From Raillietiella orientalis (lineage: Eukaryota): a DNA stretch of 64,000 bases. The stretch lies in assembly GCA_036172245.1 (NCBI GenBank), contig JAYWIR010000013.1:3658001-3722000 (forward strand). Reading direction: 5' to 3'. The number at the start of each line of letters is the position of its first letter. Position 1 is the first letter of the stretch. Both the position numbers and the translations under genes were made by a program. This document shows, one piece after another, positions 3,330-63,500 of the stretch. Under the pieces are notes generated by a model. It ran no database searches. It was not told the origin of the DNA and was given only the letters and a program-made list of their open reading frames with translations.

Positions 3330-5950
3330 CAAAACATTCCCAAAAGAGACTCATTGAAACTTTCGCAAATGTGAAATTGAATCCGCAAACTCCTCTACAA
3401 CTTTTGATACCGGTGAAAAATTAATGTTAAATGAAATGCAGTAGGATATAAGTTTGATGTTTTTGCAATGGCAACAAACTAAATTGCCCAAGTTGTACCC
3501 ACTTGCTGGTGCATGTATTTTAAAATTTTCAATATACTCTATAATCTCCACATTCCAGGAAAAGTGTTTGCGTTGCTTTCTTGTGTAAAGATTTTTGTGT
3601 AAATATAATGCCGTGTCAATGCTATGCTATGTCCTTTAGGAGGGATGATGTGCATCCTTGAGTATTGACATGGGGAGAACATCTATGGCTTTAGCCGATT
3701 TTATGAAATGTTTCATGAAGCTTCGGTGCGGGCGTAGTTTGGTCACTGCAAAAAAGTTTTCCAGTTCCGACTTTCTATCCTTCACCCTTAATCAATTCAT
3801 TTAAATCGAATGGCCACCGAATTATCAGAGTTTATGTTGAAACGGTTTTGTTATACATCTCTGAGATACTTCTTTCTTCTCCTTCTTCCAGACAAGAGCC
3901 TTCTTCATTACTCTCAGGGGGTCATCTGGGTGACCGTATATTCATGCTGGTCAGAAGTCACAAGCCTGGTGAGGAGTTCATTCATATCTTAGTGAGGTTA
4001 GGCTCATCCATCGTGAGTCTTCTGAGCTACGGTTCCTTTTTTCTGCAAAATGGATCTGTATAGTGGCTGGAAGCTGATGGGAGAGCTCGGTAGTAATCTT
4101 TATATGGGATGATAACAAGGCTTATAAGTTTCCTAAGAATCCATTACTCTTTTCCCAAAGCATCTTCGTTCCAGTCACCCAGAGTTTCCAAGAAACGATC
4201 GCTTTCTCAAGTCGAGGAACCACTGGCGAATTTGTTAGACGGCAATTACTCCATCCGAATCATTTTCCAAATTAAGTCGACAGAATCCGATACGCCTTGA
4301 ATCTAACATTCACTTCTGGAAGCTCGACATCATGCGATGATACTAGAGTCTTCCTTTCCAAATAGATGCAATTTCGGAGGGACACGACGAACGAATTCTG
4401 CTCTTTTTTTTCAAACAGGAATGACAGAGCCACCTCCACTCCAGCTAATCGAGGCAACACTAAGTGGATTTGCCTCCTTACTGGGTCAGTAGTGTGGCAC
4501 TTCCGATCTTTACGAAGGCTACAAGTTTCTAGGCTCTACATTCCGGAACTCTTGAATCCACAGTGTCAGCCACTAAGTCTAATGTTTTCTCCCAAGTTTC
4601 CAGAGTATACATTCACGCTCTGATTCTTGATTGGGGCACTAAATAAACCGTCTGGCTTTCATAAGGGCAAAGTTCGTTAACCATTGAGACCCGAAGTTCT
4701 CTACCCTCTCGAAGAATCGAGGAAATGTCCAGTAAAGAATCTTGGAAGTCGATTCAAAATGCTGCGAAAGAGGGGAAAGCGGCTACAACGAGAGATGCTC
4801 CGTGGAAAGCCTTCGTTTTAGAATCCGAGGATCCCCTTTGCTCGTTGCTCTCACTCTGTAGAAAGAGAGAAGAAATTCAGCCGGAAGAGAGGAGAGTCCT
4901 CTGGCTGCAGTGCCTGCATTCGCGTTTTCAAATGAACATGCAGTAGGGAGGGAAGGAAGAAAAGTGAGCTCGTGGCACAACGAAACCACACTAGTGGAAT
5001 GAGATCAAATAAATAAGATTGGCCCGCGCCGGAGGCCACTTGGCTGCAATCTCCGCAAGGCGTGGCATCGAGCTTCGCGGGTTCGAATACTCGGAAAGAA
5101 TCGAAGTCGAGAGATGGGGTGCGCCATAGGTTCGAGTTCCTCCTGCTATATGACGCTGGTCAGCCTCTGTTTATTCGGGTGCGGCACCGGTAGCGCTTCA
5201 AACCGGATACCCCTGATGAGTAGCCGAGATTGAGAGTCGACCTTCCGGGGTCCTTTCAGGGAACAGAATCAGGAGGCTCTTTTGTTTCTGATCCAGGGAA
5301 GAGGTAGTCGTGGTTAATGAGACCACCTGGAGCAAGGAGGAAAAATGAGGGCGACAGCAGCGCTCTTCAGCTTCGCGGAGAGCCAGCGATACTTTGCCCT
5401 TCATCCCTTCATCGAAGTCGTCGACACACTGCCGGTCGATCGTCGGGTAGCACCGTCGGACGACGGAAAGGCCGGGGCACACCCTCTCACCCCACGGGAC
5501 GATTCCCACGCCAATCACTGGAGTTTTCCTCCTCGTCGATCTCTGGCTAAGATCTACCGACCGAGAGGCTGCATAAGAAAAGGGAGAAGGGAGTCTCTGC
5601 TCTTCCTGGATCGAGTTCGTACCCTTCTTCTAGCTCGAATCAGTCGCTTTTTTGGGAGGAGAGGGCGATCCGCTTGACCTCCTGGGTGGGCCTCGCATCA
5701 TCCTCCGGAGCGCCTGAGAAGCGCTGGTGTCCCCCCGTTTCTAGAGAGTTCCTTCCCGGAAGTTCGATTTCCACCCGGACACGCCAGGGCGTTGCTCAGA
5801 ATTTCAAGAAGAAGCTCGTAGGACGTGCGTGTCGGCCCTACCACACTCCGCTTGTCCACGGACCTTCCAGATCGCCGGTGCGAGACCGGCGAAGGTCACC
5901 TCGGCAGCGGTGCGAGAACGGGAGAAAAACACAAAGGAAAAAGGAAGAGT
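3330..5950 (-). mobile_element. Degenerate L1/Tx1-like non-LTR retrotransposon remnant A (APE endonuclease plus RT thumb)
   Basis: Minus-strand translation gives ERTPEGRLSI (APE 'DPEGR' motif, ~5240) and YRILST*FG...PRLEKAIVSWKLW (RT thumb-like, ~4150-4300). DNA at 5030-5290 is visibly homologous to 11760-12000, 49730-49910 and, inverted, 7430-7560. Many stops and frameshifts. Ends are approximate. Confidence 0.5.
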
Positions 5951-6439
5951 AAATAAAAATAAATAAAAACCTTTTCGGGAGGGAAGGGGAGGAGACCACC
6001 GGCCGCTGGAGAAAGTCCTCTAGGATTTCGTTCCGGCATCCTGGAACGTCCTAGGTCCTAGGTCCGTCCGAATAGGTGCCGGGTGGGGCCGTCCGGTCGG
6101 TATCCGCGGAAGGCAAACTGCGAGCTGGACGGCGTCCCGTCCGCTTCTTCCTCCGTCGGTTTCGCTTTTCTTCTCCATCCCTCCGACGGCCTCGACTCCG
6201 CGGAAACAGCGAAGGGCTGCTTCCAGGGCGGGCCGCGGCCGGATGCAGGGCGTCCCGCACAAAGAGGAGCCGTGAAACGTCCTTGAGGAGGGTGCCAACC
6301 GGGATCCGGATGTCGGATGGGAGGACGGGGAAAGGGGGGAAGGAGCATGGGTGATCTCCGTCATCGCCGGCCAGTGCGCCTTCCCGCGGCTCCTGGTTTT
6401 CCGCAGCAGTCGATGACCTGCCATCCGTCGGATGCGTCC

Positions 6440-40250: not shown

Positions 40251-40499
40251 GCGCACCCTATTCTGACGCACCTCCTCGGAGGTGTCGAAGGTGTTGTTCA
40301 CGTGACAGGAAGGTGTGCATCGCATTTGGATTTCAACGGGCGATCGATGACGCCCTTGCACTTGCTCCTTGATCAGCTTTCGTGATACGACATGCTGCAG
40401 GCGACCTTGAATGGGGCCGACGATAGCCGGCAGGGTTCGCATCAGGTCTTGACCTAGTGACCGTCGCGAATTCTGCCAGTCGCTTGCCGGCGAGCGGTC

Positions 40500-41520
40500 C
40501 TCGATTTTCACCCGGGTTCCGCCGGGGCGTTTATTAAAAAAATAAACTTTAACAAAGACGTGCAGTGGCTGGAGCAATGCTCCAGCCACGCACGAAGAAA
40601 CACAGAGCCTGCCGGGTCACCGGTTCGCAGACCGGTACAGTCCACCACGGCAGCAGGGAGAAGAGGGATAAACAAAGAAAAAATAAACAAAAAGAAAAGG
40701 TGGGAGGGTACGGGAAGGGATCACTGTTGCTTCTGGGGCCGTTGCATCCTTCGCAGGATGCCGGCAAGCTCTTTCTGCATTCCAGGATCCAGGTGGGGCC
40801 ATCTCGACGCCCTCCTCGAAAATTCGGCGGCGTGCTGGATGGCACGCTTATCGCGTGGTCTTCCCGCAGCCTTGCTCCAAGCGGCGAAGGTCCCGCGAAG
40901 GCAGCACAGGGCTGCTAACGAGGCCGCAGGCCGAAGGGCGTCGGCAACGAAGAGGGCTTTTAAAGCGTCCCTGGGGTTGCCGCAGGGGATTCCGATGGCC
41001 GCGGCAAAGCGGAACCAAAGGGGCCGGAGGGCAACACAATCCACAAGTAGGTGGGAAGGGACTCCCGTTCCCCACACCTGACACAATTGGGGTCCACCGC
41101 TCCCCAGGTCCAGTGGTGTAGGCGGACGTTGCAGGGGAGTCCCCAGTGCTGCAACAGGAGAGCCGACTCCTGCCATTTTAAGGGGAGGGTGGAGGTGTTC
41201 ATAAGCACCAAGGGCCAATTCAGATGTTCAATGGGAACATCGGGCAGCGCGCCCCAGCGCAGAAGTCCATGGGGAGGCGTACCCGGGGTCGCAGCGTCTG
41301 TTAGCTGGCCCGTCTTCCACTCTCCTATCTTCTCCTTTCCGGAGATTGTCACTGTAACCTCCCACTTCGCCGCAACATCTCTGTCCAGATCTTCCATCAG
41401 GGAGGGCATCGCAGCAGCGAGGGTGGGCCAGCGGTCCCCGAGTGTGCGGATGCAGTCGCTGTTCCTCCTGCCTTCCTCTTTTGCGACAGAAGGTGTGCAC
41501 TTCCTGTCTGGAAGTGTTTT
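40500..41520 (-). mobile_element. 5'-truncated L1/Tx1-like copy E (ORF2 C-terminal zinc-binding region plus structured 3' UTR)
   Basis: LPLKWQESALLLQHWGLPCNVRLHHWTWGAVDPNCVRCGERESLP/HLLVDCVALRPLW (CxxC..ExxxHL...C, zf-RVT-like), stop at ~40721. Homologous to copies G, H and I. Confidence 0.82.
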
Positions 41521-41629
41521 GATCAATTGGCTGTTGTTTTTGTGAGGTAGAATAAAGCAGAGTCGGGCATTTCAGTGTAGGTAATAGGTAAGCAAGGGGT
41601 TTCGTTCAAAATCCCGAACGTCATGATCT

Positions 41630-42465
41630 CGAAAGATAAAAGAAATAAATACATAAGTTGATTATATAGATCAATACATAGATTCACAGATAAATACATA
41701 TACTAAACTAATATTAATATATATTCAATCTGTATGTATTGTATACAGATTAATATGCATAAACATATAAAGAATGTAGAAAATGAATACATGTTTATTA
41801 TGTATATATGAATACATATATTTAGTTTGATAAATATATTATATAAAATTTTATTATTAACACAAATTAAATCTGTACACATCACATCTGGAGTAATATG
41901 CATATTAAAGATTAAGAGATAAATATATACAAAGATATATTTATACATAAAAACAAATCAACGTTTAATGTATATTCATTACACATGAATATGTATTAAG
42001 ATATAGAATAAACATGTATGTTTATTTTTTGCAATCTCAAATATATCTTACTAATCTATATTTATACGTATTCATTGCATAAATAATGAGCATGATGATA
42101 AATAATAAGAAATATGTATATTAAAATAATTTTGTATATTAATCCAAGTATATACATGCATTAATATAATATATATTTATATGTAATAGGCATATATATT
42201 TATTTTTAATAATCTATATTTATATATACCTTAGTATAGATTATGTATGGATTATCTATAGGGTATATATGGATTAATGAGGATTGTACTAGATTAATGT
42301 ATGTTTATAGATAAATAACTCTGTATTCCCATGTAGATCAATATACAGATTTATATATTTATGTATATATATGCAGATGTGCACATAGATGTATATATGT
42401 ATAGAACTATATATATAATCTATATATATTAGTATTGATATATATACATATATAGATGTATTTTT
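41630..42465. repeat. Extremely AT-rich degenerate (TA)n low-complexity island
   Basis: About 830 nt dominated by TATA/ATAT/TACA with abrupt borders against GC-richer flanks. Confidence 0.9.
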
Positions 42466-42829
42466 AGTTATTTCTTATGATCTGAGATTTCGACATTCGG
42501 TATTTTGATCGGCACTTGTCAAGCAGACATGGGGGGGTGGATTTCAGTGGTTTGGCAATACTGCAAACCATAAAGTTTCCTTGGTGGCTTATAATCCACG
42601 AAAAACTTTCGTAATTACCAATTCGCATACCGTTGTTTTCATTACTGAAAGGTGGTTTTCTTAATTGATGATAATCAGTAGTTCTGATCAAGGTGCAGTG
42701 TAAGAAAGAATCAAGTTAACCACTGTATGTTAATATTGGACATGCGAATGTGATGCTTTCACGTGTATGGCAATAGGCCTTAACCGAAAATTTATCAGGG
42801 AACGGCAAATTGAACTTATCTGAGTGCTC

Positions 42830-44639: not shown

Positions 44640-46600
44640 TCACTCCGTCCAGAAAAAAAAAAAAAAAAATGCAGCGATCATCATCACTTTGCAGTGGCGA
44701 CTATTACAGTGCACGCTCGACCTTCGATGAAAGGAACTTTTGACATGGGCAGCCCTCGGTGCAGTCAACATTTTGAGCCTTCCGTCGTTCGGCGAAGGCA
44801 ACTTTTTCCAGCCGCGTCGAAGATGCGGAAAAACATGGGAAGTTCCATGGACTGCCCCAGTAAAAAGTTGGATGTTCCACGTGAAACCGAGGAGGGAACG
44901 AAGGTGAAAGTGCCGTGGACACATTAGCAATTTCGGAAATCGTGGAAGGCAAAGGGAACGCGGAGGACTGCGGTCGCCCCATGCTGTGGCCACACCTAAA
45001 AACGGGATGGCGATCTCGAAATGTCCCGAAATGGAAGGAGCTTCCCATTCGTGGCTCTCACAGCAACAGCGAGGCTCGGGGAAGACCATCGTCCCCAACG
45101 AAATCTGGAAAGGAAAGCCCAAGGAAACGGCTGGGACGGAGTGAGGAATTTCGGGGGAGAGATGGGTGGCCGAGCACCTTCAGCAAAAGACATGACACGC
45201 CATGCCATGACATGACATGCCATTCCGTGTGACGAGAGAGAGAGAGAACGTAGTAAGTGACCCTGGGATTACGGGCTGGGCGGAAGGAGAAGACGGATGA
45301 AAACCGTGCTCATGACCCGGGTACCCCCACGAGCGTGCAGAAGAAATTGGAGATGAGAGGGGCAACCGTGTTCCAGAACCCCAAAATCGGCAAAGTCATT
45401 GACCACTCATTCAAGTTCGCTGTGTCTGCCTCCCTGTTCGTGAGGTTCTTCCCTCCTGAGAGGAGGAGTACGGGAAGAAGCTTGAATAAAATTTTACACC
45501 GTATCATCATCATTCACCATACCCCATCATCATCTTTACTCTTTGTAGTGTTACTAAAGTTGCTCATGTTGCTGCTGTTCAACAATTTGGTTTCTTTAAA
45601 TTATATCGAATGTGCACTGTACTATTATGTGGTTCTCTCCTCGTCTCGGGAAGACGCTGGGTTCTGCAAAGCCCCTCCCCTTCCCCTCCCCCCCGAGTTT
45701 CGAGCACCTTTGACTTCTGAGATCATCTCGGAGATGGCAGCACGTCACCGTCGTGGAGAAAGGTTCTTTCTTCCCGCTTCAAGACGTCGCAAGCTGCATT
45801 CTGCTCTCCGACTGACGACGCGGGCGGGGGTGAATTCCCGCATTCCTCTGGAGGGAGAGCCGGCGATGGGAGCAGAAGTGCAGGCAGCGTCAAGCTTTCC
45901 TGGCCGAGAGCGACACGGAAAGTGCAAGCCCTCCGGCATACTGCACACCGCGCATCGCAGAAAGTGAAATTCTCAGCGATCGGACCGCGTCTTGGGTCTT
46001 CCCGGGGGCGGTCCGTCCTCTCTCCTTCAGCGAGTCCCGAGCGCAGCTGGAGTGTCGAGGGGCGCTCTCCAGAGTGATACTCTCCAGGGAAGCAAAGAAT
46101 CTCGGGAAGAGCCAAGTTCGCTTCTCCTTTTCTCCCATTTTTTTGTTGCCTCGCAGCCTCCACCCACCCCGCGCATTTCGTAATTCAACGGAGCGGTCCC
46201 TCCCACTCCAGTGGCTCGGAGTCCCCTCTGTCCCGACCCTGCAGCCTCGCGGACCTTGCGGTGCCGACCCCTGGCTTCACGGAGGGCGTGTCGCTGGCTT
46301 CCCGACCCCGAAAGGGTGAGCCCAAGAATGTTCGGCGGGGCAGGCCGGAGGTAATCTCGCGAAGGGCTGTGCGAACGGGGGATCCCGGAGATCGATCCAT
46401 TCGGATGACTCGAACGGGAATTTTTCTTTTCGTCTCTGGTTTCACGCCCACTTGCTCCAGGGCCTTTTCGGAGAGCGCCACGAACTTTGCGAGTCCCCAT
46501 GTTCAGGCGAGATGCAGAGCAGGAGACTGCTCGCCCAAACACCTTTGGGGAGGAAGGGAGCAGGGCAGGACGCCACACTCCCGCCAAAGCGCTGCAAGAA
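44640..46600 (+). mobile_element. Degenerate L1/Tx1-like remnant F (ORF1 plus APE), interrupted by (CATGA)n and trinucleotide tracts
   Basis: KVKVPW...WPHLKTGWRSRNV...ELP (ORF1 'TGxR..IP'-like), then PSGIL, FN and RMTRTGIFLFVS (APE 'SRID.F.S'-like). Confidence 0.42.
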
Positions 46601-47244
46601 TTTTATTTGCTAACTGCTATCACTCTTACCATTATCACGAGGCACATCTCAAAAGTAATGGCGGATCGGATAGAAAGAAAGGACGAACAAGGAGGAGCAG
46701 AAATGCATTCGTGGCTCTGAGCACAGACGTCCACGTGTCATCTTTCCACATGGTCACCATTTTTCTTCCAAGCACTTTTGATCCCGTGGAACGAGCTTTT
46801 TGGAACCGCCTGCATGGAATTCCGCCGCCTGGGAGTGGGGCCAGCTCAGCAGCACTGCACTTTCCGACTCCCCACTTTCCCCCTCGAGATAGAAGGGGCC
46901 ACTTCATGAGGTGCAGGGAGGAAGGCGTGGTAGCCACCGGGCGCGAGAACTTCAAAAAGTTCCCATTCGAATGCCTGAATTGTGTGGAGTGTGCGGACGG
47001 CAGCGTGCGTGCTTTCGGTGGACTTTATGGAGCCCGGAACGACCACCACTTGGCCAGTCCACTGCGTAGAAACACTCTCGAAGCTGCGGCGTACCACCGA
47101 AGACGTGGAGGGCTGAGGTCAGGAGGAACGGTTCCTCTCCTTCACGGCAACGCGCGCCTTAGCAACACATGCCGTCCGCACATTCCAGGCAGTTCAGGCA
47201 TTCGAATGGGAAGATCACCAGTCCTGACCTCGCGCCATTACTTT

Positions 47245-47559: not shown

Positions 47560-49385
47560 GCGTGATGCGCCCATCACTTGTTGACAGATGCTGCAGTCGA
47601 GCGCCACTGCGGACCGCCGGCGTGAGTCGGGGGTGCTTCCGCGTCCCGACTCGCGCCTTCCTCGATCCGAGCATCGCAAGACCTCAGACCTCCCCTTCCC
47701 CCCTCCTCGAACCGCAGTCCGCAGTGCCGCCAGCCGAGGAATCCCGGTCTTCCGTCCGGGGGCGTCCGTCCGTCCGCCGTCGTCCCGGCGGCGAGCGAGC
47801 TTCCCCTGGCGTCGCAGCGGTAGGAGCCGAGCGCGGTGCCGTCAACAGGGATCCCGAGGGCCGCACGGACGATTACCCCTTGCGTCTGGCCGCGAGCGGG
47901 AAACGGATCAGCCCCGGGCGGGAAGGACGCGACCCCGGCAGCAAACCGGGAACGTGCGGCTCGGAGCTCTTCCGTGCCGGAGGAAGAGCTGGAACGTGCT
48001 GCCGTGCATGGCGAGGGCCCAGCGGGAGCTTGGAGGTCACTCCCGACGGAAGGGCGCGACCCGCGGGGGATGCGTCGCCCTGCCGACGCCACCGAGCCTG
48101 CACATTTCGGCAGCGACCGACGGGGCGGTCGGATCGCGATGCCCGGCTGTCCTCGGAAGGGACCGCCTGCCTCATGACAATTCGGTCCGCTTTGCGTCCA
48201 TCCGTGCGTGGGAAACGGACTGGACAGTGGCCTGCCAATCAGGTGGAAAAGCAGGAAGAGACTTATCATTCGTGCTGCCAATAGACAGAGGTGGAGGGCA
48301 GTGAATGAACCCGCGCTGCCTGGCCGCAGGGAACCGCTCGCACGTGGACAGGGATCCAGGAGCCATGCCCGGAACAGGTGCGACGTTTCCTGTAGGTGCG
48401 TAACAACAACTGCAAGCTCCGGAAGATCCTGGAAGTTCCCGCGAAGAATGCATGGGAAAACAGAACCTCCCTCCCCGCTGCACTGCCCTCCCTTAGGGAG
48501 CATATGGGCAGCAGTCTTACGGCTAGATGGGAGGTTACTGCAGAAATCTCCGGAAGGAGAAAAGGACTGGGCGAGTGGACGATGGGCCAGGTCACTGAAG
48601 CTGCGACCCCGAGTGCTCAGCCTCGTAGACTTTGGCGCTGGGGCATGCTACTGGGTATTCCGGAGTAATACCTGCAGTGACCCCCGGTGCTCATGAACAC
48701 CCGCACCCTCCCCTTGAAGTGGTAGGAGTTGGCGTTGATGCTGCTGCACTGGGGCCTCCCGTGCAACGCCTGCCAGCATCACTGGACACGGTGCGGGGAG
48801 CGGGAATCCCTCCCGCACCTGCTTGTGGGCTGTGTTGCTCTCCGGCCTCTCTGGGAACTCTTTTGCCGCAGCCCTAGGAACCCCTGGAGACAACTCCAGG
48901 GACCCTTTACGACTTCTCCTCCTAGGCGACGTCCTCTCGCCGGCCGCATCCCTAGCAGCACTGTGCTGCCTACGTGGGATCGCATGGAACAACGCCAGAG
49001 GAGGCAAGAATGACAGGGACTCCATGCATTTTGCTGTCCTCTTGATGAGGACAGTGTCAAGGTGGCCCCATCTGGGAGTCCTGAAACAGGAACTTGCCTA
49101 CATCCTTACAAGGATGCAGAGGACACCCTTCAACACACAGTGATCCCTTCTCGAACCTCCTCCCCTCCCTTCATCTTTTTTGACTGCTGCTTTTCGTTTT
49201 GTTTTTCTCTTTTTGTTTGTCTTCTCTTCCCTTGTACTGCCGAGGTGCATCCTGCTGGCCTGTGTGACGGATCCTGGCAGGTTCCTTTTCGTATTCATAA
49301 GTAACGTGGCAGGATCAAACGTCCTGCCACAGGCAAGTAGGTTTGTTTTATAAATAAACGCCCCGGCGTGACCGGGTCAAGGGGA
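47560..49385 (+). mobile_element. L1/Tx1-like copy G (APE fragment 47600-48200, ORF2 C-terminus 48240-49143, structured 3' UTR)
   Basis: SPGVAAV...RDPEGR (APE), then LHWGLPCNACQHHWTRCGERESLPHLLVGCVALRPLW and SRWPHLGVLKQELAYILTRMQRTPFNTQ* (49143), ending AATAAACGCCCCGGCGTGACCGGGTCAA. Confidence 0.82.
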
Positions 49386-49389
49386 ATGG

Positions 49390-50550
49390 ATGGGGGAAGG
49401 ATGAGGGAAGGCCAGGAAGTCGGTGCGCGCGCATTCGGCAAGAATGGGTCGCATCCAGAAACCCGCTGGACGGACGGCACGGGACGGAGCAGCGCGCGGA
49501 ATCGACAGGCAGCGGCAGGGGCCACCTGCCCTCCGAGCGTGCGGAGACCTGCTCGCGCGCGCGCGCCTTCGGGGCAAGCGAGCTGCACCGAAGAGGGCGC
49601 ACGGGTGGCACGGCTCCGCTGGTCAGAAGGCGTCCAAGGTCCGTCTTATCCACGAGAGGGTCGCAGACAGAGTCAGGGGAGGGGCAATAGGGGGATCCTT
49701 ACCCGCTCGGGCGACCGTGCGCCTGCGCGCGCCTCCGCCGGGTTCGAACTCCAGTCCGGAGAAGAATCGACGCCAAGAACGAAGGGTGCGTCGTGGGTTT
49801 CGAGTTCTCCCGCGAGATGGCGCTGGTTGGCCTGTAGGTTTCCTGTGCGGCGCTGGCGGAAGCAGCCGGACACCCCGGGGTCTTTCCAGGAATGCAAGGA
49901 GCCCTTCGGAGCTCTCCCCCGGGTCTCTAAAGCTGCGGAGCTGCTTGATGTCCCCCCCTCCCTTACCAACAACAAAAAAAGGCTCGAAATCGCCCTGCGC
50001 CGCACCGCTGGCTCTCATCTCGCCGCCGCGGATGTGACAGCGGCTGATGCCGTAGCTCGGACTCGTAACGATGCCTTCGCCTTCCGCTTGTCCACCGAGC
50101 CTCCCCGCCGATGCATTGGGCGCCTCCTCTCTCTGGCGGCGTAGGTGAGGAAGGTCCTTCGTGTAGGCCGCTGCTTGCGGACGGTGGACCCGCTGGCGGC
50201 GATGCACGCGGGTCCGCCCTTCCATCTCTGCTCGACAGTGCAGGCGTCAGCTTTCCTGCTTTCCCTTCCCTTTCGGGTCGTGGTTGGCCAGCGGCGGCTG
50301 CCTGACGATGGGAGGCGACGGGGGACAACGCGCCACATCGTGGCGGGCGTTCTGGTGGGATGCGGCTGCTTGCGCAGCGAAATCTCCCTCTCCCGCCGTT
50401 GGAATGAGGGTCGTCTCTGGTGGTCGAGGGGTTGCCTGGCAGCGGATCTTTGTCGGGAGCGAAGTACGCGCAGAGTGGCGCCGATTTGGCGGCTCTCGTG
50501 CGCATTTCTCCCGGCAGCGCCGGCGCGTTTCTTTTGTGGGGAAAAAAAAA
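49390..50550 (-). mobile_element. APE-endonuclease remnant related to A and C
   Basis: SWKDPG...QRHLAGELETHDAPFVLGVD. 49730-49910 is homologous to 5060-5290 and 11800-12000. Confidence 0.55.
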
Positions 50551-50654
50551 GGAATAATTTCGACAAGTAATAGTAAATAAATTTAGCAGTTATATTACAA
50601 AAACAGAATTTTAAAAATTAACAAGTCATTCATGAAGGTGGGTAATGGCAGTAC

Positions 50655-50880
50655 AATGCCACCCGGTTGCGCAGGGACGTTTATTTTTTTCTTAAAACAA
50701 ACTACAAGTTAGGGCGGAAAAGAATCCCCTCAAAATACAAGAAATGCCCGATAAAAAAGTTCATCCGGGACAACCACCGGCACGCAGGCCGGCTTCCAAA
50801 AAGTAGGGAACAGAGGGAGGGGACAACAAATGAATAAATAAAAAGACAGGAGGGTGGGGACAAGGGTCTTTCGTTGAAGA
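50655..50880 (-). mobile_element. Solo 3' UTR fragment J of the E/G/H/I family
   Basis: Reverse complement shows a pyrimidine tract, GCCGGCCTGCGTGCCGGT and GTTTGTTTT...AAATAAACGTCCCTGCGCAACCGGGTG. Confidence 0.68.
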
Positions 50881-50929
50881 CGTTCTTTTCCTTTCTAGAA
50901 GCGGCTCTAGACGGTAGCGATCTGCCTAG

Positions 50930-52475
50930 CGACCTCTGGCAGATGAGACCACCTTGCTGCTGTCCTCATGACGGCTGCTGCCATGCTGGCGGCCTCTCTT
51001 AGCTTCAAACCTGACTCCAGCACGTGGCAGGCTGTCACCATGGCGCTGATGCATCATCTCGTCGCGATCACAGAGACCTTCTTTAGCCCTCTTTCTGCGA
51101 AGAAGCGTTGCAGCAAATCCGTTCCAGTGTCCTGCGGTAGACGGAGTGCCGAAGCGAGACTCCTCCACAAGTCCTCCAGGGCGCTGCAGCCCAACAAAAG
51201 TTGCGGGAGAGACTCCATCTCCTCTCACCTTAAACAGTTCAGGGATGCAGCTACCCCGGAATGACCTCCTCCCAGATGTCGGCGCTGACTGCACTGGAAT
51301 CCCCCCAGTGCAGAAACAGAAGAACATCCTGAACGTTTCCATCGGAGCGGGAACACGGAGGTGTCCACACACAAGGGACGGAAGACGAGTTCTTTAGGGG
51401 GTACATCAAGCAGGAACGTGTCCAGCTGCATACTGGAGCTCCGGCGAGTGGCCAAGCTGACCAGGACAAACACCTGGCTCTCCTGCCGGCCCGCGAACGG
51501 TAGCTCCTGGTTGCAGGAAACCGTTCTCACATGGGCCAAGAGCAACGAAGCGAGCCCGGAGATGCGGCAGCGACTGCTGCACTCCTTCGACAACAACCTC
51601 CCTCTGCAGGATATCATCGTGCAGCCCACCACCACGTGTGCGTGGTGGTGGACTGGAACATTCCTAGCCGCCTGGTTACTGCCCTCCCTCAGGGAGCACC
51701 TGGGCAGTAACCAGCCGACTAAATGAGTGGTCCGATGTGAGATCGGAGGAAAAGCGAAGGAATCAGGTGGTTGTACCACGGGCCAGCTCACGGATGCTGC
51801 AACCCCAAGTGCACCACCAAAAGGATGCTCTGGAGATCCCACAGGAAGACCCCGAGTGGCCCCCGGCCCTGAAGAACAACCCTCCCCCGGAAGTGGCAGG
51901 AGTGGGCACTTCTGCTGTTGCACTGTGTCCCCTGCACCTGCTCGTAGACTGTGTTGCCCTCCAATCCCTGCGGTTGCGTTACGCAACGACCCTTGGGGCA
52001 TCAAAAGATAATCCCAGAGACGTGTTGAAGCACCTCTTCGTGAGCGATGCCCTTTCACCTCCGCATTGCTAGCAGCTCTTTGCTGCCTGCGTGGGATTGT
52101 GGCAGCCTGGAGCTACGCTAGAGGAGGACGACGCGATAGGGACGTCATCTGCTCCGACCTGCGCTTCCTGCGGACGGCAGCAAGATGGCCCCACCTGGGA
52201 CACTCACAGATGGAACTTGCCAGCATCCTGGAAAGGATTCAGAAGACGCCCTCCAGTAAACAGTGATCCCTTCCCTAAGCCTCCCAATTTTTGTAAATAC
52301 TTTTTTTTTTATTTTTTATTTGTCCCCTCCAATGCCGAGGAGAATCTCGCCGGTCTGCGGGCCGGTTACCGCTCAACAAATTTCGAACATTTTCGGACGA
52401 TTTAGGGTCGATGGCCCTACACATGTATGTTTATTTTTAATAATAACCGCACCGGCGTTACCCGATGTTAAACCA
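50930..52475 (+). mobile_element. 5'-truncated L1/Tx1-like copy H
   Basis: LPSLREHLGS...GQLTDAATP...LAALCCLRGI...RWPHLG...ELASILERIQKTPSSKQ* (52266), homologous to E, G and I with the same 3' UTR layout. Confidence 0.78.
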
Positions 52476-52479
52476 AGCA

Positions 52480-55400
52480 GGTTGCTCCCCACTGGAAGAG
52501 TCCCTTTGCCCGAAAACGAAGGATGGAGCCATCAACCAGCTCGCCCTCTCGTCTGGCAGTCGTCTAGGAGTTTTTCGATTCCTGCACTGTTGCAGGAGAA
52601 CTCCCGCCCCGCCGGTTGGCTGTTGTCATTTCTTGCCCTGAGGGAATACAACGCAGCGGGGAGGGGTGAGACGGCTACCCGGAACCACTGCGTCCAATTC
52701 TGCAGAAGATCTCCCAGCGATTTGCGCAGGAGAGTATGCAACGTTCGCCGTTCCTCTGCGCGCACTTCCAGAGCTCCACGTTCCGGAGGAGTCCTTTGTT
52801 CGGAGCAGTCACCGGAAGAGGTCCACGGGGGGAAATCAGGGAATGGATCAGGGAAGGTATCGAGCCCTTCTGATTGATCCCCCCTCTCAAGGATGCCGGT
52901 AAGTTCCTCCCAGTTGGGTGTCAGGCGCGACCGTCGCACCGCAGTCCTTAGGAACGAGAAGACGAAAGAGATGATGACGGCTTCTCTGTTGTTCCGGCCT
53001 CTGCCGTCGGGGGCTTCCAGCCACCACGGTCCCGTGGAGAAGGCTGAAAGACTGCAAGATCCGCCGCAGGCGACATCCCTCCAAGCGGGAGGAGGCACCT
53101 GAATGAGGTCCTCGAGGGGTCTTCTGGTAAGTTCAAGGACATGGTCAGACGTGTCCCCTTCTCCCCCCCCCGCGCACACCGGAGGGCAGCATGCACTCCG
53201 AAAGCAGGTGCGGCGGGGTTTCGCTTTGGCCGCCCCTGCCACCCTCTGGGGCCGTACTTACCCTGGTCCAGCGGTGGAGGCGCGCGTTGCATGGGATGGC
53301 CAATGCGGCAGTTGCGATGCTCTGAGTTCTGCCACTCCAGAGGAAGGGAAAAAGCTGCCGAAGAGCACCACGGGAATCACTCCCTCCGATGGGATTCCAA
53401 GGAGTCCATCAGGGAAGACGGCGGGGGTAGAAGCGTCCGCCAGTTGACGCGCCGTCCAGCATCCCAGGGCTCCTTTCCTGTGATCCCGCAGTTCGTTTCC
53501 CTTCTTGAGGGCTGGCGGCCGTCCTGACTATCCTGGAGGGATGTCAGCGTCGCAGCAAGAGGGGTTTACTATGCCCACGGGGCCTTCCTGGGGGCAGTCC
53601 GTCTTCCCCTTCAGAGAACAGCGAGCGCAGCTGGGGTGCCACAGATGTCGCGCTTCTTCAAGGCTCGTGCCGCTGATCTTCCCCCACCATCTGAACTGCA
53701 ACTTCCTGTCTCCAAGAACCACAGTTCTTCGGCGAGCAGGAGGTCTGGGGTTGGCCTTGAGCCAAGGCAACTGTCTGCCGAGTGGCACCCACGTCGGTGA
53801 ACTCTAGGGCGGTTGAGGAACGAGGTGAGTTGACTGCGATTCCCCGGGACGCTTCGGTGAACGTCGCCAGAACGTCGCCTCCGGGCTGCTCCCTTCCCAC
53901 AGAGCGCCCGGGGAGACACGGGACCTCCGCATGCCCCGGAAGGCTTTTCTTAGAAGAATCTCAGTCCGCTTCCTCATGCCGCTCGGAGAAGGAAGAGGGG
54001 AGGGCAGAGGACGGTGGCCACGAAAGTGTTGCAAATGACGGTCTCTTGCGGCAGGAAGCGGAACCTGCCATCCCGGAACGGGTCGGGGGCCGGCTCTGCC
54101 TTCTGAAGACAGATGGACCATGCCCCCTTCTACACGGCACCGAGGTACATGAAGTCCCGAACTGTGGAGGGTCCACTGGAACCTCCCGCCCGACGCCCGC
54201 CGACACCATTGAATTCGGGGGTGGAGGTGAACCCGAACTGCGGCAGGTGATGCTGAAGAGAGTCCCTCCCGCACCTGCTAGTGGATTGTGTTGCCCTCCT
54301 CCCCCTCTGAGAACGCTTTGCCGCGCCCACGCGAATCCCCGAGGGCAGCCCCAGAGACGTTCTGAAGCGTCTCTTCCTGCGCGACGTCCTCACTTCATGA
54401 GGACAGCGTCAAGATGGCCTCATCTGGGAATCTTGAAACAGGAATTTGCCGGCATCCTGGCAAGGATACAGAGGACACTCTCGAGCACACAGTGATGTCT
54501 TCCCGAACTCCCCTTCCCAAGTGTTTGTATCTTTGTTTTCTTTCTTTCTTTTGGTTTGTCTCCCTTTCCCCTGTGCTGCCGTGGCGAACCTCGCCGGCCT
54601 GCGCGCCGAATCTCGGCAGGTTCCTTTTGTATATTCTGTAACGTGGCAGGATCACGCACCTTGCCACTGACTTCCATGTTTATTTTATGCAAATAAACGG
54701 CCCCGGCGCAACCAGGTGTCAAACCACAGGGACGCCATGATCCCCACCGTGTCCCCCTTTCCGAGGATGGCAACGAGCTTGCCGCACCCCTTATGCCGCG
54801 CAACTTGCCTGCCTTCCGGAGACGGGATGCTGAGGATGTCTGGGAGGTCGTTGTGACCCGTCCTCCCTTTGCTTCCCCCTTCCCTCCCAGTCTTTTTAGT
54901 TCCGGTCTTTTTGAAAATCTATGTTCGCTGCCAGAATGGCATAGATGAACATAGATGTTTACCTCTCCCTCCCTCCTCCCCCCTGATTTTCCCCGCGCGA
55001 GGACCCAGCTGGGCGGCCCAATAACGATCAGAAATGCCTCCTAGGCGTGCGCTGACGACGTCGGGCTACCACCGTGACCCCACTGCGAACGAATGACCTT
55101 TTGGTTTTCTTGACTGCCCACTTGCGAATGGGTTTTCCCCAGTCTGACGTACGGCGGAGCGAATTCATCCGTTCTTTTAGGTTCAGCGGGGAACGCACTT
55201 TGGACCGACTTCTTCCCTTCGAACACGCTTTGAACTTTGCCCTCGATATTCCAGGAAAACCTGAAATGTCGAGGGTGTTCCGTCGGGAGCCTTTTCAGGG
55301 TTCAGGCGCCCCCGGAGCGCCAGCCGCTCCCCGTGCTAGTCGCATCCTAGCGAAACATGGCTTATTCCGCCCTTGCGGCATCTGCAGCGGACGTCCCCGG

Positions 55401-56700: not shown

Positions 56701-57799
56701 TCTCGATCCTCTGGAGCTACGGGAAACCACCTTCCCCCAAGTGCCCCGAACTGTCCGCGCGCAGAAGACTTCTGTCGGATGTGGACGGTGGCTGCGGTCG
56801 GCAGACACAGATCCCAGCCGCCGACGCAGAGGGAGAAGACGAGGATGCTTGCCCAGGTGACGTACGGGTGGCGCTCGAGGGGCAGAGCGATTGTTCGGTG
56901 GGGGTAAAGTTCGCCAAGAGGGATCGCTGCTCCCTCCGCTGCCGAGCGAGTCGTTAGCCTCTCCCACCGTGTGATAGCCTCGTTCATAACTTTGCGGAAA
57001 CCGCTCCGCACAACGCGAATGCGATTAGCGTCATGGCAAGCATTTTTTTTTTTTTTTTTCCGGTCGGCTACGAAACGAGGAAGGGTTCGCAGTGTAAACG
57101 AGAGATCCGTTTCCTTTTCTTCAGCGGGGAGGGGAGCTACGCAGATGAGTGAAGAATTTGCCCGCCCGCGGCGCATCTCAAGCCACCGTGCGTCAAAGCA
57201 GCAAAAAGAAGAAGAAGAAGAAGCAAAAACCAGTTGCGCACTCCACGTGCACAAGCAGAATTCGATTCACCGTCTGCGCTGCCGTGGGACATCTTCGATC
57301 CTTTGGGCCGATGTTGCCCCGGTAGGTCCGAAGCCAGGCCCTACTACCCTTGCCGACATCTTTCACGCTAACGGCGCGCAAAGTTGTCAGCCGCTGCTGA
57401 TGGCAGCAGTCGCGACTGCGCTCTCAGGCGGGGGGGGGGGGTGGAGGGCGCGGTTCGGCAAGCTGCTCGCGAAAACGAGTGCAAGGCCGAGGATGGAGGG
57501 AGTTTCGCCATAAGGGGAGTCTTCGCAGGGTCTTCGCCATGGCGAAACGAGTGCAAGGGTGGGTACCCAGGCAGAGGAGGAGGAGTTTCCCGCTCGCGGC
57601 ACATCTCAAGCTGCCGTACGTCGAAGCAGCAAAAAGAAGAGCCAGCAAGGCTCTCGTCGGCCAGCTGGGGAGCCCCGAAAAGGTTCCGTGACCCAGGTGA
57701 GAGGCGGAGACTTCAGAGCGAGCGAACGACAGCCACGCTTACGTTGACAGACCGGCGCGGAGGCACTCCTTTTTCCAGATCGGTGGACGGTTTTTCGCC

Positions 57800-58600: not shown

Positions 58601-60390
58601 GATGGGAATGTCTGCATGATCGGAGCTGCCAGGGATGCACGGTGGCCCTCGGCATGGGCAGCATGGGGAAAATTCGACCTCACCTCCTTGCAGCCGGCTG
58701 CGAAACGCGAAGAACTCCCAGTTCAGCCGATTAACCGATCGTCTCTTGGAGCGCGGCATCGAGGAAGCATCCAGTGGACCAGGATTGCCCGTGTCCACTG
58801 CGGATCGGCGGTGCTGACACGTGCAACCTCGTCGGTGGTGAGACGCTTTTGCTCGATCAAAACCGCGGAAAAAAAAAAAAAAAACCCCTCATCACGAAGA
58901 AACTCCTTGCCCGAGTCCTGGGGCGCACGTGGGGGGGATCAGGGAGGAGAAGGCGACATGGCTTCAGAAACCCCTCGTCTCCGGGCTCGTTTCTTCCTGG
59001 CTGCTGACGTTGATGGGAACGTCCCGAAGATTCGGGTGATTTGGTGAATTCCTTGTGAACGCCGACGCCGGGAGTCACGAGGGAACGGAGGGATTGAAGT
59101 CGACGGTGGCAGCGACGGGGAAGATTGCTGCCGCGGGCCGCTTGCATTCAAGCTGCGAGGGGGCGCACGACGAATTCCGGGAACGGTGGGGAGACTGCAG
59201 GGGCACAGTTCCAGAAATTTCTGGCTGCCACCGATGCGTTTCAACGAAGAGCTCGGAAGAAGACCCCGCGTTTTTTTATCTGTTCTAAAAAACCGGAAGC
59301 CTTGAATGAAAGTCCTCACACGTAACTCGAATTTGGATAATGGGAAGGGCGAAAATGTGATGTCCTTTCCGTGGTGTTATCCTTGAAATGGAAAATCATT
59401 TTCTAAAAAGTGGACGGCATTGAAATTACTATGCGTAATTGAATCCTTTGGACGTCACCAATTAAGTATCGAAGATGAATGCAATCTCGAAATGATTCCA
59501 TCACTTGAAACTCTGCGGCCTACGGATGCTGCTCGGAATTACAATGTATCGCTATGTAAAGTTTCCAAGTCGGCCTTCTCAAAGGGAGCGCTACCGAGTG
59601 CTTACGAACTATCCTTTGGTCTCTGAAATGAGGGAGCACAAATTTGGCCTTTCCGATTCGCTTGCAAGAATCGGCGAGGGGATTGCCGAAGGCGTTTTTG
59701 ATTTTCCTCCGTAGAAGGTCGGTTGTGTGCGCTGAAGGGCCGAGAAATCAATTCAGAGACGCAGATGCATCTGGATCACGTATCCGGGCATCGCGAACCC
59801 CGTTGCCATGGCGTGGGCTTCTGGAATGGCGCTTCCTAGCTTTCTGGAGATGACATCCCGAGGGAGAACAAAGAAAGGGCTCGAGGTTTGGCCATCGGAA
59901 ATTTGCTTCGCCCCCGCAGCTTCTGGAGCGCGGATTGGCCCGACAACAGCGCCGGCAAAAAAAAAAAAAAAAAACCGGAGTCTTTTTCGACTTTGCTGTT
60001 CGGTCTTCCAAACTGCGACGGACTCTTGCAGCAGCGTCATCACCACCCCACCAGATGAAAAGCGAGGCGCAACCCACAGTCCCGATGGCGGCCGTTTCCC
60101 TGCTGGGATGTTGCGGGGCATCATCTTCGCCGCGCAGCATCCGAGTTCCGATCGGCGTGCGAGTACCGTCCGCGGTTCCCACCGGGGCATTCCGAAACAC
60201 TCGCGGTGAACAGGGCGCACGAACCGCGAAAGCACGCCCGGGGGCAAACACGGATCGCGGCGGGCGTGTTTTCGAGACCACTTCGCTCGAGGCGCCGTTG
60301 ATAGATGGCACTGGCGGGGGGGGGAAGGGGTTGCCTTGGATACCGGCAGTTCGCCGTGCCGAAGGTGTGCGCGCGGCCATCGCAACCCAG

Positions 60391-60554: not shown

Positions 60555-63500
60555 GTGAGACGCATTTTCTTCCACGTGGATGGATGGATGGCTAGTGTGG
60601 ATGGTTGGGGAGGGGACGGGCAGAGAGCATTCCCTCCCCCCACCTACCCCGAGCCGTGGGTGTCGCCGGGGGCAACCGGCCGCCGTAGCGACGCATTTCG
60701 GGCGCAACCCGCGTGCGCGCGCGTGCGAGCGTCGACCGCTAGAGAGACGTCGGGCACCATGCGCCCGGGGGGGCGGGGGCGGCGCACCTGGAGAGGGAGC
60801 GTGGCGGCGCCTTTACTTTTCAGTCGCTGTACGGCCTTGTGGCTGTTCCTCGATTTTTTTCTGCTTCTATTTTCCTTCCCACCCCGGGGATGGCCCAATT
60901 CCGCAGGGGAACTCGCTCCGCTGCCCTGAAGGTGAAGGCTTCGGTCAGCTCAGCTAGATGTGACCCAGGATGGTGGTTGAAACGACCGTCGGTATCCGTC
61001 GGCGCCGTTGGTCGTACAGCCCGCAACCCACCGACTGCGGAAGTTTAGAGCCAAAAATGCATCGACGAGTGCTCATCCGTGGATCAATGAACACGCCTGC
61101 CAAGGTTTTCAGTGCGCAAGGCATCGGCTTTTTCTCTCACTTGGTGTTGAGGCGGGAAGCACTGCGGTGTCTTCGGCGGGGTCGCAAGGGATGTCTTATC
61201 ATTATCGGTACAGAATATTAAAAAAAAAAAAAAAAAAAAAAAAGGATTAGGATACCTTGGAATTGTAAGGTAGGCGAGCTTTGAGTATGGTAACCCATCA
61301 GTCACGCTGCTCGTCATCCTCATTATCCTTTCATTACGGATAATGCTTTCGTTTCCACCATTCGGATGTCACGTGTGCACAATATTGTCTCGAAAATGAT
61401 CGTGATCGAAACACTTTTTTTCCATTTTATCATTATGCTTGTTGTGTGCGTGCGCAAGAGGATTAAAAATGAAAGAAAAGAAAAAAGCACGGTTGCCAGC
61501 ATACACACGACGGGATATTGCCCGCACCACCACTCTGCCAAGGATTCCGCACGCGGTGTGAAGAGTGGTGAAATTTCATGATGTTGGCGTGCTGTGAGGG
61601 GTCCACCGCAGATGTGTTTTTTCTGATGAGGACGTAAGCATCTCGAGGTATCTGTTCGTGTTGGAAAATTCATTCTGTGCTTTTCTCTGCACCCTTCCTC
61701 TTGGTTTCTTCTTTTCGAGGACGACCCTCACGCTATTTCGCTCTTCGGTTGTAATCGATACATTTGGAAATATTTTTTGGGGAAAAAATAAGCTCTTATT
61801 ACAAAAAGCTCGAGCTAGCCAAAGAGAAAGTTCCTCTTATTGCTGTTTGTTTAAGTTTCCGTTTGATGGCACACTGCATGTACCTCGATGTGGTGGGTAT
61901 GGATACTTTTGTCTCCACGCCGACCACATCGCGGGAACACGAATTAGGAGCGTTTTTTTTATTAAAACTAGAAACAAGTGAAGCTGACTGAACAGAACCT
62001 CGCACTATTATAGTACTTGAAAAAAAGCCATACATTTAGAAAATACTTTGGGCAGAAGGGAGGGGGTCACTACAGGTTGACCTGTGCAACACCCGAATCA
62101 CCAATCACGTGTTTTTTTCTTGAGTCTCAACACCGTCTTCCTTGGTTTCGTCCTGTTTCGTTTTCTTGGAAGATTACTCCAGGTGTGCCTGCCTTTCCAT
62201 CCTTCTCGAATCTTCTCGTTGGAAGAGCGAGGAGCACTTGCTGCTCGTCGGTTTGGAAAGCTGCGTTTGTATTTTGGTGCGGGCGGTGGAGTTCCCCCAA
62301 GTTGTTTCATTGGCGAGCATCTTCGACCTATCTATGCCAGAAGAAAAAAAAAAAAAGGCACTGCGTTTTGAAAGGACGGTCTCTGCATCACGGGAAATGA
62401 ACTTCTGCTGTTTGAATAGGATAAAGGCTGCATCCTGTTTGTGTGCGATCCGTACGATTACAATCTTAGCAGCACCTTTCTTATTCCCCTCAGCATCGAC
62501 GGCATCCGTGCTAAACAGACAAAGAGCCTCGAGGTATCAGAAGACGTTCTCCAGTCCTTCTTGCTGACAAGTTTGGAGTGACTTCTTATTGCACGGATGC
62601 TGCTCCAAAGAACTGTGTCCGAACGTGTCTTTTTTTTTTTGGTAAAGTCGATAGTGGAAACTACTTTGCGAAACCGCCACTCGGGAGGGGAAATAAACAT
62701 GGATGGAAAGGGGACTTTTTCCAGAAATTGTCCGTTGCCATTTAGAGCACTTGGGAAGTCGGTTAACCTCCATCGTAAGCAGTTGGCGAACGACTAGGCG
62801 TTAGTAGGCGCGAAGATCCGAAATAAGCTGCCCACTGGATGGATTTTGTCGCTCTCGGGAGCGATGTCTTTCCGCCAACTCCGTGGTCGGTCGCCTCTCC
62901 ATTCGTTTGCACGTTCAGGCAGCGAGGAAGACGGCAGCAAAGCATCCGCGTTTCGGAGGGTGATGCACTTCTTCCCAAACCCGAGGCACTCCATTTTTCT
63001 TCCATTCTTCACCATGACAACGCACGGGTACCTGGAAGCTCGCGACTGGCGTTCAAGTAGGATCGTTGGCCGCAACGACCGATTCAGCCGTGAGGACGGA
63101 AGAAGGCAAACCACTGGAGAGACACAACAAATCCAGGATCGAACGTCTTCACGAAAACCTCGCGGAAAGAATGACTTTGGAAACGCTCAACCGTAGAAAT
63201 CCTTGGTTGGATTCCGGGCAGCGGTTCTGCTTGCAAGCAGACAGTGATGGATGCGCGCGCGCGCGTCTTTGGATGGCGGTGTTTTGCTTCCTTTGCCTCT
63301 GGAACCAGGTTTTTGGAACATTGATTCGCACGGGCAAGGGCCTCGTCCCGGCTTTCCGGGAAATCACGTAAAGTGGCGAGCGGTGATGTCGCGAGGAATG
63401 TTCTCGGAGATCTCAGTCGAACCCGCGGGGAGGTTTTCGACGTCCGGCGCACACATGCTCCTTGATAAACTCCAAGGTTAGGGGGATAGCATGTGCTCAG

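Follow-up and report, generated by a model that had tools for sequence, protein, structure and literature searches.

A four-hairpin 3′ untranslated tail with compensatory changes in diverged retroelement copies of Raillietiella orientalis

A 64,000-nucleotide (nt) stretch of the Raillietiella orientalis genome (contig JAYWIR010000013.1, positions 3,658,001 to 3,722,000; hereafter the window) carries short, diverged copies of a repeat that end in the same succession of inverted repeats, which raises the question of whether the copies share a selected RNA fold at their 3′ ends and what such a fold would be for. The original prediction, made from the letters alone, described a four-hairpin 3′ untranslated region in five retroelement copies, named E, G, H, I and J, and proposed it as a selected, possibly undescribed RNA structure of an L1/Tx1-like family. 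The analysis shows directly a conserved fold, compensatory changes, a common 3′ end and one target-site duplication. We take the region, with a probability of roughly 0.6, to be the 3′ untranslated tail of a ‘stringent’ non-LTR retrotransposon (one without long terminal repeats) of the long interspersed nuclear element (LINE) type, folding as a recognition handle. This type fits the tail, whose 3′ end is conserved, structured and without a long poly(A), in copies that terminate immediately behind the final hairpin.

The layout is seen in copy G, in which the remnant of an open reading frame (ORF) runs up to a TGA stop at 49141, followed by a pyrimidine tract and then by about 145 nt with inverted repeats (Table 1). 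In the other copies the pyrimidine tracts measure 65–88 nt, with 75–88% C+T. The four hairpins and the outer stem that encloses hairpin 1, termed P0, were all found at the places in the sequence where they had been predicted.

Copies were detected with an nhmmer profile built from E, G, H, I and J, and the nhmmer, covariance-model and Rfam scans each covered all 64 kb. The profile returned six tails at E ≤ 1.8e-15 among the 18 matches listed, and the covariance model six tails at E ≤ 1e-5 among the 31 matches listed at E ≤ 10; the remaining covariance-model matches are mirror images of hairpin 2 on the reverse strand, or noise. All five copies originally described are present with their quoted sequences and positions, and the number of tails rises to six with the addition of copy K. 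When E, G and I were the sole input of a covariance model, the held-out copies H, K and J scored 53.3, 36.6 and 31.2 bits, and the window gave no other credible match beyond the six tails.

The 3′ end is common to all copies, their 5′ stops differ, and all are shorter than about 1 kb in blastn comparisons. Measured from the 3′ end, the 5′ limits lie at about 921 nt in E, at least 915 nt in G, about 800 nt in H and about 550 nt in I; that of G is a minimum, a weak match to H suggesting that the copy reaches to about 48319. Copy E is flanked by a direct repeat, matching at 14 of 16 bases and placed exactly at both insertion boundaries, where by our own arithmetic chance would supply a 12-mer with at most one mismatch about 0.12 times over the whole 2.35 kb that was searched. 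This direct repeat is the signature of target-primed insertion and puts the 3′ end of copy E at ...CCCGGGTGAAAA. Copy termini have the form ...GGGTG(N)AAA(A), with 2–4 bases after hairpin 4 and then AAA(A). Beyond the A run, TCGA is common to E and K and CCA to I and H, and the true terminus may therefore lie 3–4 bases farther on. The copies are retroposed, 5′-truncated insertions without a long poly(A), and the repeat behaves like a LINE; the shared 3′ end, the differing 5′ ends and the duplication around E agree with their prediction as retroelement copies. A candidate duplication of copy G at 48445 was dropped, as G probably extends farther upstream.

The fold was evaluated by RNAalifold against column-shuffled alignments, with an unedited MAFFT alignment and a hand-curated alignment of the six tails. 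The curated alignment folded at −27.5 kcal/mol, compared with −3.6 ± 2.0 kcal/mol for its shuffled versions (z −11.7, 0 of 500 shuffles as low), and the unedited alignment at −19.9 compared with −4.1 ± 2.2 kcal/mol (z −7.4, 0 of 500), so that on both the fold beat all 500 column shuffles. Hairpins 1–4 were recovered from the curated alignment, and hairpins 1–3 together with long-range pairs, without hairpin 4, from the unedited one. An alignment of four copies gave z −8.4 and a structure conservation index of 0.64 for the tail; two adjacent 150-nt blocks of the ORF in the same four copies, taken as a control, gave z −0.87 (36 of 200 shuffles) and −2.46 (3 of 200), with indices of 0.24 and 0.15.

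Individual copies differ in how well they fold, with single-copy z values of −5.4 (E), −4.2 (G), −1.9 (I), −0.2 (H), −0.2 (J) and +0.8 (K), an unevenness that is expected if the copies decayed to differing degrees. Folded locally, hairpin 1 adopts the expected structure in five of the six copies (not in G), hairpin 2 in all six, with energies from −21.0 kcal/mol in E to a weak −5.3 kcal/mol in J, and hairpin 3 in four of six, at only −2.3 to −4.2 kcal/mol; hairpin 4 is complete in E, G and K and partial in I, H and J. Most stem arms have a pairwise identity of 0.52–0.80, with 0.93 and 0.44 for the two arms of P0, and the values for linkers, spacers and the hairpin 2 loop are 0.20–0.43. Sequence conservation in the tail is highest over the arms of hairpins 3 and 4 and the bases between them, at 0.76–0.83. 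In none of the six copies is the antisense strand more stable than the sense strand, the sense alignment folds at −27.5 compared with −23.7 for the antisense, whose consensus fold lacks hairpin 3, and there are 13 G–U cells as against 6 A–C cells. The strand comparison thus points modestly to the sense RNA as the strand that folds.

The comparison of copies, pair by pair, bears out the description of the hairpins. Hairpin 1 is closed by T–A in E and K, C–G in G, I and J, and T–G in H, in agreement with the predicted variation; its outermost pair is A–T in E, G–C in K, G–T in H and J and G–A in G and I, around an inner CCGG core that is constant save for mismatches in G and I. Copy K has the version GCCGGT-CTCGC-ACCGGC. 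Copies E, G and I have the outer stem, which carries one mismatch in K, is lost in H and is deleted in J; the pair table also agrees on the outer stem of E, G and I and on the degradation of hairpin 1 in G. Beside hairpin 1, an alternative helix, noticed by eye, could form in I (GAACCT/AGGTTC, 54585–54625) and in K (GACCTTC/GAAGGTC, 5862–5897, minus strand). Two positions, both compensated, distinguish the two helices, each of which overlaps the outer stem at its 3′ arm, and the local fold of K uses its version; absent from E, G and H, the helix was left out of the fold model. A kissing contact of the hairpin 1 loop with that of hairpin 4 was likewise dropped, their complementarity being inconsistent between copies when compared by eye.

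In hairpin 2, the stems of H, K and J align in register with their counterparts in E, G and I around a common AGG/CCT core, and this includes the predicted divergent stem of copy H (TAGGGTC-GAT-GGCCCTA), which pairs in register with the others. Position 5 of the stem is C–G or U–A and position 9 is A–U, G–U or G–C; position 6 is A–U or U–A, a double transversion without a wobble intermediate; the A–T/T–A swap that had been noticed is real between G and I on the one side and E on the other. Lengths of 3 to 8 nt occur in the aligned loop block without any shift in the stem register. Hairpin 3, described for five copies, can be formed in E, G, I and J, with one mismatch in H, and is missing from K, and the AATAAA that it carries is intact in four of the six copies, one base off in H and lacking in K. 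The terminal CCCGG-loop-CCGGG of hairpin 4 is perfect in E and G and contains a G–U in K; I, H and J each carry a single mismatch, and H in addition a compensated pair.

Two-sided changes that keep pairing are carried by 8 of the 36 pairs, and 83.3% of the cells over these pairs are standard pairs. In a partner-swap control, which exchanges 3′ columns among pairs of the same consensus type, 10 of the 15 doubly changed cells were standard pairs, compared with 4.5 ± 1.8 expected (P 0.0028, 5000 permutations). On the unedited MAFFT alignment, 80.5% of cells were paired as against 75.0 ± 1.6 (0 of 500 shuffles) and the covariation score was 0.255 as against 0.172 (1 of 500); sliding the partners by 1–3 columns left 29–49% of cells paired and 2–5 pairs changed on both sides. 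The corresponding figures for a model-fitted alignment were 94.4% paired cells as against 89.4 (0 of 500), 6 pairs changed on both sides as against 2.5 (3 of 500) and a score of 0.141 as against 0.087 (0 of 500). The structure was derived from one of the six sequences, and this one alignment was fitted to the structure. The figures are mutually consistent yet modest, and we regard the covariation, which exceeds three kinds of control, as moderate evidence: hairpins 1 and 2 are supported by it, and the support for hairpin 4 is mainly its sequence conservation. The predicted selected fold accordingly stands in so far as the hairpins are conserved in position and better kept than the linkers, with compensatory changes that maintain them only partly.

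The protein remnant upstream of the tail gives limited information on the class of the element. Its C-terminal region is 43–62% identical between copies and contains, about 110 residues before the stop, a C-x2-C-x7-H-x4-C motif (CVRCGERESLP-H-LLVDC), recognized by eye and read across a frameshift in E; in copy G it is read in one frame, with the first cysteine lost. A knuckle of this kind in such a position is found in the second ORF (ORF2) of many LINE clades, in plant-type L1 as Pfam zf-RVT, and is not specific to L1/Tx1. No reverse transcriptase (RVT) domain was found in 146 ORFs of at least 100 residues from the G+C-rich parts of the window, no reverse transcriptase motif was seen in six frames, and the C-terminal remnant had no Pfam match even at E ≤ 10. 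With no copy reaching about 1 kb, the reverse transcriptase domain would lie upstream of the truncation points.

A profile of the C-terminal region, compared with 1.84 billion representative proteins, gave two hits, one of them a true relative of 87 residues on a metagenome contig and the other a spurious repeat protein, which was discarded. A word-indexed protein search returned no longer relatives, nothing related to the 87-residue protein was found in prokaryote genomes, and a cluster look-up gave it no name. Among the language-model neighbours in the ESM Atlas, 13 of 30 hits fall in clusters that are partly zf-RVT, the listed cluster having 21% zf-RVT members at a score of 0.93; this lead is the only hint of an L1-like ORF2 end, and no placement in L1/Tx1 is drawn from it. 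AlphaFold2 models the last 110 residues as all-helical at low confidence (mean predicted local distance difference test score, pLDDT, 59.6), and Foldseek found no match to this model in the PDB at E ≤ 0.001 (best E 1.2). A scan of metagenomes with the terminal motif gave 101 stretches, in all of which nhmmer matched only the pattern itself. One of them had a slightly longer match, yet hairpin 1, hairpin 2 and the pyrimidine tract were missing upstream, and the covariance model run over 100 of the 101 loci produced one weak match (E 0.055); these stretches were judged to be chance hits.

In the arrangement proposed here, the ORF stop would be followed by a pyrimidine tract of 65–93 nt, unable to pair with itself, which may insulate the folded domain from the ORF, and then by a domain of about 145 nt with four predicted hairpins in the sense RNA. 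Hairpin 1 would present a CUGCG-N loop from within the outer stem in most copies, hairpin 2 would form a long stem that co-varies around a loop free to change, hairpin 3 would be a weak A/U hairpin bearing AAUAAA, and the G+C-rich hairpin 4 would be terminal, with 2–4 bases and AAA(A) behind it. The element’s own reverse transcriptase would bind this fold, the likeliest contacts being the terminal hairpin 4, together with the bases that flank it, and the CUGCG loop in hairpin 1, because these are the most sequence-constrained parts. Target-primed reverse transcription would then start at the short A run just past hairpin 4, and binding and initiation of this kind would account for 5′ truncation and for copies that finish at this point with no long poly(A).

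Several observations weigh against a selected recognition handle. The sample comprises six related, decayed sequences, in which relatedness alone can beat shuffles, and the structure was already known when the alignment was curated. On the unedited alignment the pairs changed on both sides number 10 as against 6.7 ± 1.7, a count reached by 20 of 500 shuffles; hairpin 2 taken alone gives P 0.22 in the partner-swap control, where the test is insignificant because few columns are exchangeable. Three of the six copies (H, J and K) fold no better than their own shuffles, the changes in hairpin 4 mostly break pairs, and hairpin 3 is doubtful as a structure, its conservation being explicable by AATAAA alone. 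A sequence-only model from the E/G/I alignment scored H at 39.5, K at 27.2 and J at 28.0 bits, numbers that are not strictly comparable with those of the covariance model, as the two models have unequal effective sequence numbers. No significant target-site duplication was found for G, H and I by longest common substring, and none was established for J and K. Pfam returned no reverse transcriptase or endonuclease domain from the 13 + 133 + 14 + 4 translated ORFs of the window, and because no such domain is present there, the class of the element rests on the insertion hallmarks and on the zinc-knuckle-like motif identified by eye. Finally, a partner short interspersed nuclear element (SINE) with the same tail is missing from the 64 kb, in which the covariance model finds only the six ORF-linked tails.

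Some of these points would also fit hairpins that are ancestral inverted repeats, inherited without a selected role and compensated by chance with the aid of transitions through G–U: the small set of six related sequences, the 20 of 500 shuffles that attain the covarying-pair count, the P of 0.22 for hairpin 2 and the three poorly folding copies. Mere inheritance is, however, distinctly unlikely, given that the stems (mostly 0.52–0.80) are better kept than the linkers, spacers and hairpin 2 loop (0.20–0.43), that the ORF blocks of the same copies have no such fold, that the A–T to T–A double transversion in hairpin 2 has no wobble route, that the loop of this hairpin ranges from 3 to 8 nt at a constant stem register, and that all covariation controls agree in direction. 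An action of the inverted repeats as DNA, for example as hairpins of first-strand complementary DNA that prime or guide second-strand synthesis, would be consistent with the fact that most pairs are Watson–Crick and can form on either strand, and with an antisense alignment fold (−23.7) only slightly weaker than the sense fold (−27.5). The excess of G–U over A–C cells (13 versus 6), the greater stability of the sense strand in six of six copies and the loss of hairpin 3 from the antisense consensus fold leave this account with hardly any probability. That the repeat is not an autonomous LINE at all, and represents retroposed cellular pseudogenes or a non-autonomous element with a structured 3′ untranslated region, would accommodate the lack of a reverse transcriptase or endonuclease in the 64 kb, the lack of a Pfam hit at E ≤ 10 for the ORF remnant and the single true relative, of 87 residues, among 1.84 billion representative proteins. 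It is very improbable: copies of less than about 1 kb would have lost the reverse transcriptase to 5′ truncation anyway, the knuckle recognized by eye about 110 residues before the stop recalls those of LINEs, zf-RVT clusters appear among the language-model neighbours (as a lead only), and the poly(A) tail expected of processed pseudogenes is missing.

The tail could also act in the element’s messenger RNA, as a module of 3′-end formation or stability instead of a reverse transcriptase handle, with AAUAAA in hairpin 3, cleavage about 20 nt downstream, directly behind hairpin 4, and hairpins that present the polyadenylation signal or protect the end. The AATAAA intact in four of six copies and one base off in H, copy ends about 22 nt past it with AAA(A), and a sequence conservation that is highest in the tail from hairpin 3 through hairpin 4 would all suit such a module. 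Against it, copy K keeps hairpins 1, 2 and 4 without AATAAA or hairpin 3, only 3–4 A stand at the end with no poly(A) remnant, and the covarying hairpins 1 and 2 sit 60–130 nt upstream of the signal; as a replacement for the handle we consider it unlikely. The two roles are compatible, and 3′-end formation may be an additional function of hairpins 3 and 4. A transition from stringent to relaxed 3′ recognition has reportedly been proposed for L1 evolution by Okada and Ohshima, and tentatively, as a possibility on the unlikely side, the tail may be an intermediate between the two in an L1-like lineage, whose reverse transcriptase would read both structure and oligo(A). The four-hairpin modular domain, the polyadenylation signal within hairpin 3 and the sequence-specific hairpin 4 abutting the first A’s could be read in this way. 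If so, the family, which has almost no relatives in protein databases, would be a living example of that transition.

Table 1. Structured tails, repeat copies and related features, in positions of the window
Feature	Position	Strand	Remarks
Copy G	48466..49380	+	ORF remnant, stop codon, pyrimidine tract, structured tail; found by blastn, nhmmer and covariance model (152.4 bits)
Copy G, stop codon TGA	49141..49143	+	CAGTGA common to G, I, H and E
Copy G, pyrimidine tract	49144..49236	+	93 nt, 85% C+T
Copy G, outer stem P0	49237-49242 with 49275-49280	+	encloses hairpin 1; 5′ domain 49237..49280
Copy G, hairpin 1	49254-49259 with 49266-49271	+	loop CTGTGT; degraded, with two of its six pairs broken
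Copy G, hairpin 2 (GTGGCAGGAT / GTCCTGCCAC)	49306..49330	+	local folding energy −16.7 kcal/mol
Copy G, hairpin 3	49341..49359	+	A/U-rich, −2.3 kcal/mol; 3′ arm holds AATAAA (49353-49358)
Copy G, hairpin 4 (CCCGG-CGTGA-CCGGG)	49362..49376	+	terminal, −7.7 kcal/mol; within the most sequence-conserved stretch of the tail
Copy E	40505..41425	−	best-preserved tail; ends ...GGGTGAAAA; single-copy fold z −5.4
Copy E, P0 and hairpins	P0 40648-40653 with 40609-40614; hairpin 1 40619-40636; hairpin 2 40565-40589; hairpin 3 40529-40547; hairpin 4 40511-40526	−	
Copy E, target-site duplication, 5′ copy (TCGGGGACCGCTGGCC)	41426..41441	−	14 of 16 bases match the 3′ copy
Copy E, target-site duplication, 3′ copy (TCGAGGACCGCTCGCC)	40489..40504	−	abuts the 3′ end of E
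Copy I	54174..54726	+	ORF remnant and tail (tail 54576-54726); covariance model 152.2 bits
Copy H	51678..52476	+	ORF remnant and tail (tail 52332-52476), outer stem lost; covariance model 53.3 bits
Copy J	50652..50954	−	ORF end and tail; 5′ arm of outer stem deleted, hairpin 2 a 4-bp core; 31.2 bits
Copy K	5764..6093	−	sixth copy; hairpins 1, 2 and 4, no hairpin 3; nhmmer E 1.8e-15, covariance model 36.6 bits
Isolated terminal motif (AAACGCGCCGGCGCTGCCGGGAGAAA)	50503..50549	−	nhmmer E 0.0027; also 10.2 bits, E 0.038
ORF-end fragment, same family	52829..52974	−	no recognisable tail behind it; nhmmer, blastn

Directly downstream of copy J lie about 100 nt of A+T-rich sequence and then the isolated terminal motif (together 50503–50624, minus strand); the motif may represent a truncated insertion of very small size, or else belong to a related family, with J having landed beside its tail. 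The base composition of the window is sharply bimodal. A+T-rich blocks (1–4000 and 14000–38000) have 32–35% G+C (30–35% among such blocks in the window), a CpG observed/expected ratio of 0.47–0.61 and a TpG/CpA excess of 1.3, whereas G+C-rich blocks (4001–13500 and 43000–64000) have 54–57% G+C (range 50–65%) and undepleted CpG (0.93–0.97); no signature of repeat-induced point mutation was found in the composition. The structured tail sits in a large G+C-rich block from 38 to 64 kb, which resembles a heap of decayed repeats, the 146 ORFs of at least 100 residues having given no convincing Pfam domain. An exon-like ORF of 110 residues on the minus strand at 716–1045, with an FGGY carbohydrate kinase N-terminal domain (Pfam PF00370, E 1.7e-16), is probably a piece of a host glycerol-kinase-like gene in an A+T-rich block. 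Three runs of 17–22 A followed by unrelated sequence, at 44653–44696, 59957–60000 and 61222–61265, may mark poly(A) tails left by further retroposed elements, on one strand or the other. Just upstream of copy E, within the G+C-rich block, a 1.1-kb island of 23.5% G+C (41600–42700) contains direct and inverted repeats of 62–76% identity. Unrelated to the tail family are an inverted repeat at 46960–47002 and 47170–47212 (43 nt, 91% complementary, 167 nt apart) and a direct repeat at 57153–57212 and 57581–57640 (60 nt, 85% identical, 428 nt apart).

The whole window gave no Rfam match at gathering score, and over copies E and G the matches were at chance level only (E 0.53–8.2, 10–15 bits compared with cut-offs of 40–103 bits); the four-hairpin tail thus matches no Rfam family. 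The literature searched gave the general principle, and nothing on this particular four-hairpin tail. As a principle, therefore, the fold is not undescribed, contrary to what had been thought possible: L1-clade lineages that have a 3′ hairpin with compensatory changes are published (PMC3472496). They comprise a monocot lineage and a green-algal element, both of which keep a conserved 3′ end, and 5 of the 15 algal L1 families in table 1 of that paper are without a 3′ repeat (PMC3472496). In stringent LINEs, which make up most clades, it is obligatory for the reverse transcriptase to bind a stem-loop that its own RNA carries in the 3′ tail (PMC4176376). The present tail leaves current understanding unchanged, structure-dependent 3′ recognition being the rule in most LINE clades and described within the L1 clade. 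If its fold is a recognition handle, it would add a multi-hairpin case to the short list of LINE tails supported by covariation, provide a search model for active copies and for SINEs that borrow the tail, and offer a compact RNA–protein pair with which template choice by non-LTR reverse transcriptases can be studied.

In the UnaL2 and ZfL2 elements the stem-loop is followed by short repeats. The L2-clade elements UnaL2, ZfL2-1 and ZfL2-2 have an ORF2 protein that recognizes a 3′ stem-loop needed for retrotransposition, as is proposed here (Hayashi et al. 2014, PMC4176376). They belong to another clade and have a single stem-loop, and the requirement is experimental there and inferred here (PMC4176376). 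No ribosomal RNA was found in the 64-kb window, and there is no sequence or Rfam match to R2. R2 is set apart by its site specificity for 28S ribosomal DNA and its restriction-like endonuclease. Its 3′ untranslated region is generally understood to be a multi-helix fold that binds the element’s protein and templates target-primed reverse transcription without poly(A), a likeness to what is proposed for the present tail (PMC11194090, in part). Human L1 and Alu share with the present tail a position-conserved stem-loop near the 3′ end, proposed as a recognition element for reverse transcriptase (Grechishnikova and Poptsova 2016, PMC5135761); human L1 is of the relaxed type with a long poly(A), whereas the present tail has only 3–4 A past its terminal hairpin.

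The likeness to the monocot LINE1-1_ZM group and the green-algal L1-1_CR of the L1 clade extends to a 3′ end conserved far above the rest of the element (Ohshima 2012, PMC3472496) and to a hairpin with compensatory changes, in which stem bases vary and loop or flanking bases are conserved (PMC3472496). These elements have one hairpin in the last 45–50 nt; the present tail has four and an outer stem in about 145 nt, preceded by a pyrimidine tract, and it is known from truncated copies of an element not assigned to the L1 clade, with no partner SINE in the window (PMC3472496 for the published elements). With four hairpins and an outer stem compared with one hairpin, it is longer and more modular than the published L1-clade cases.

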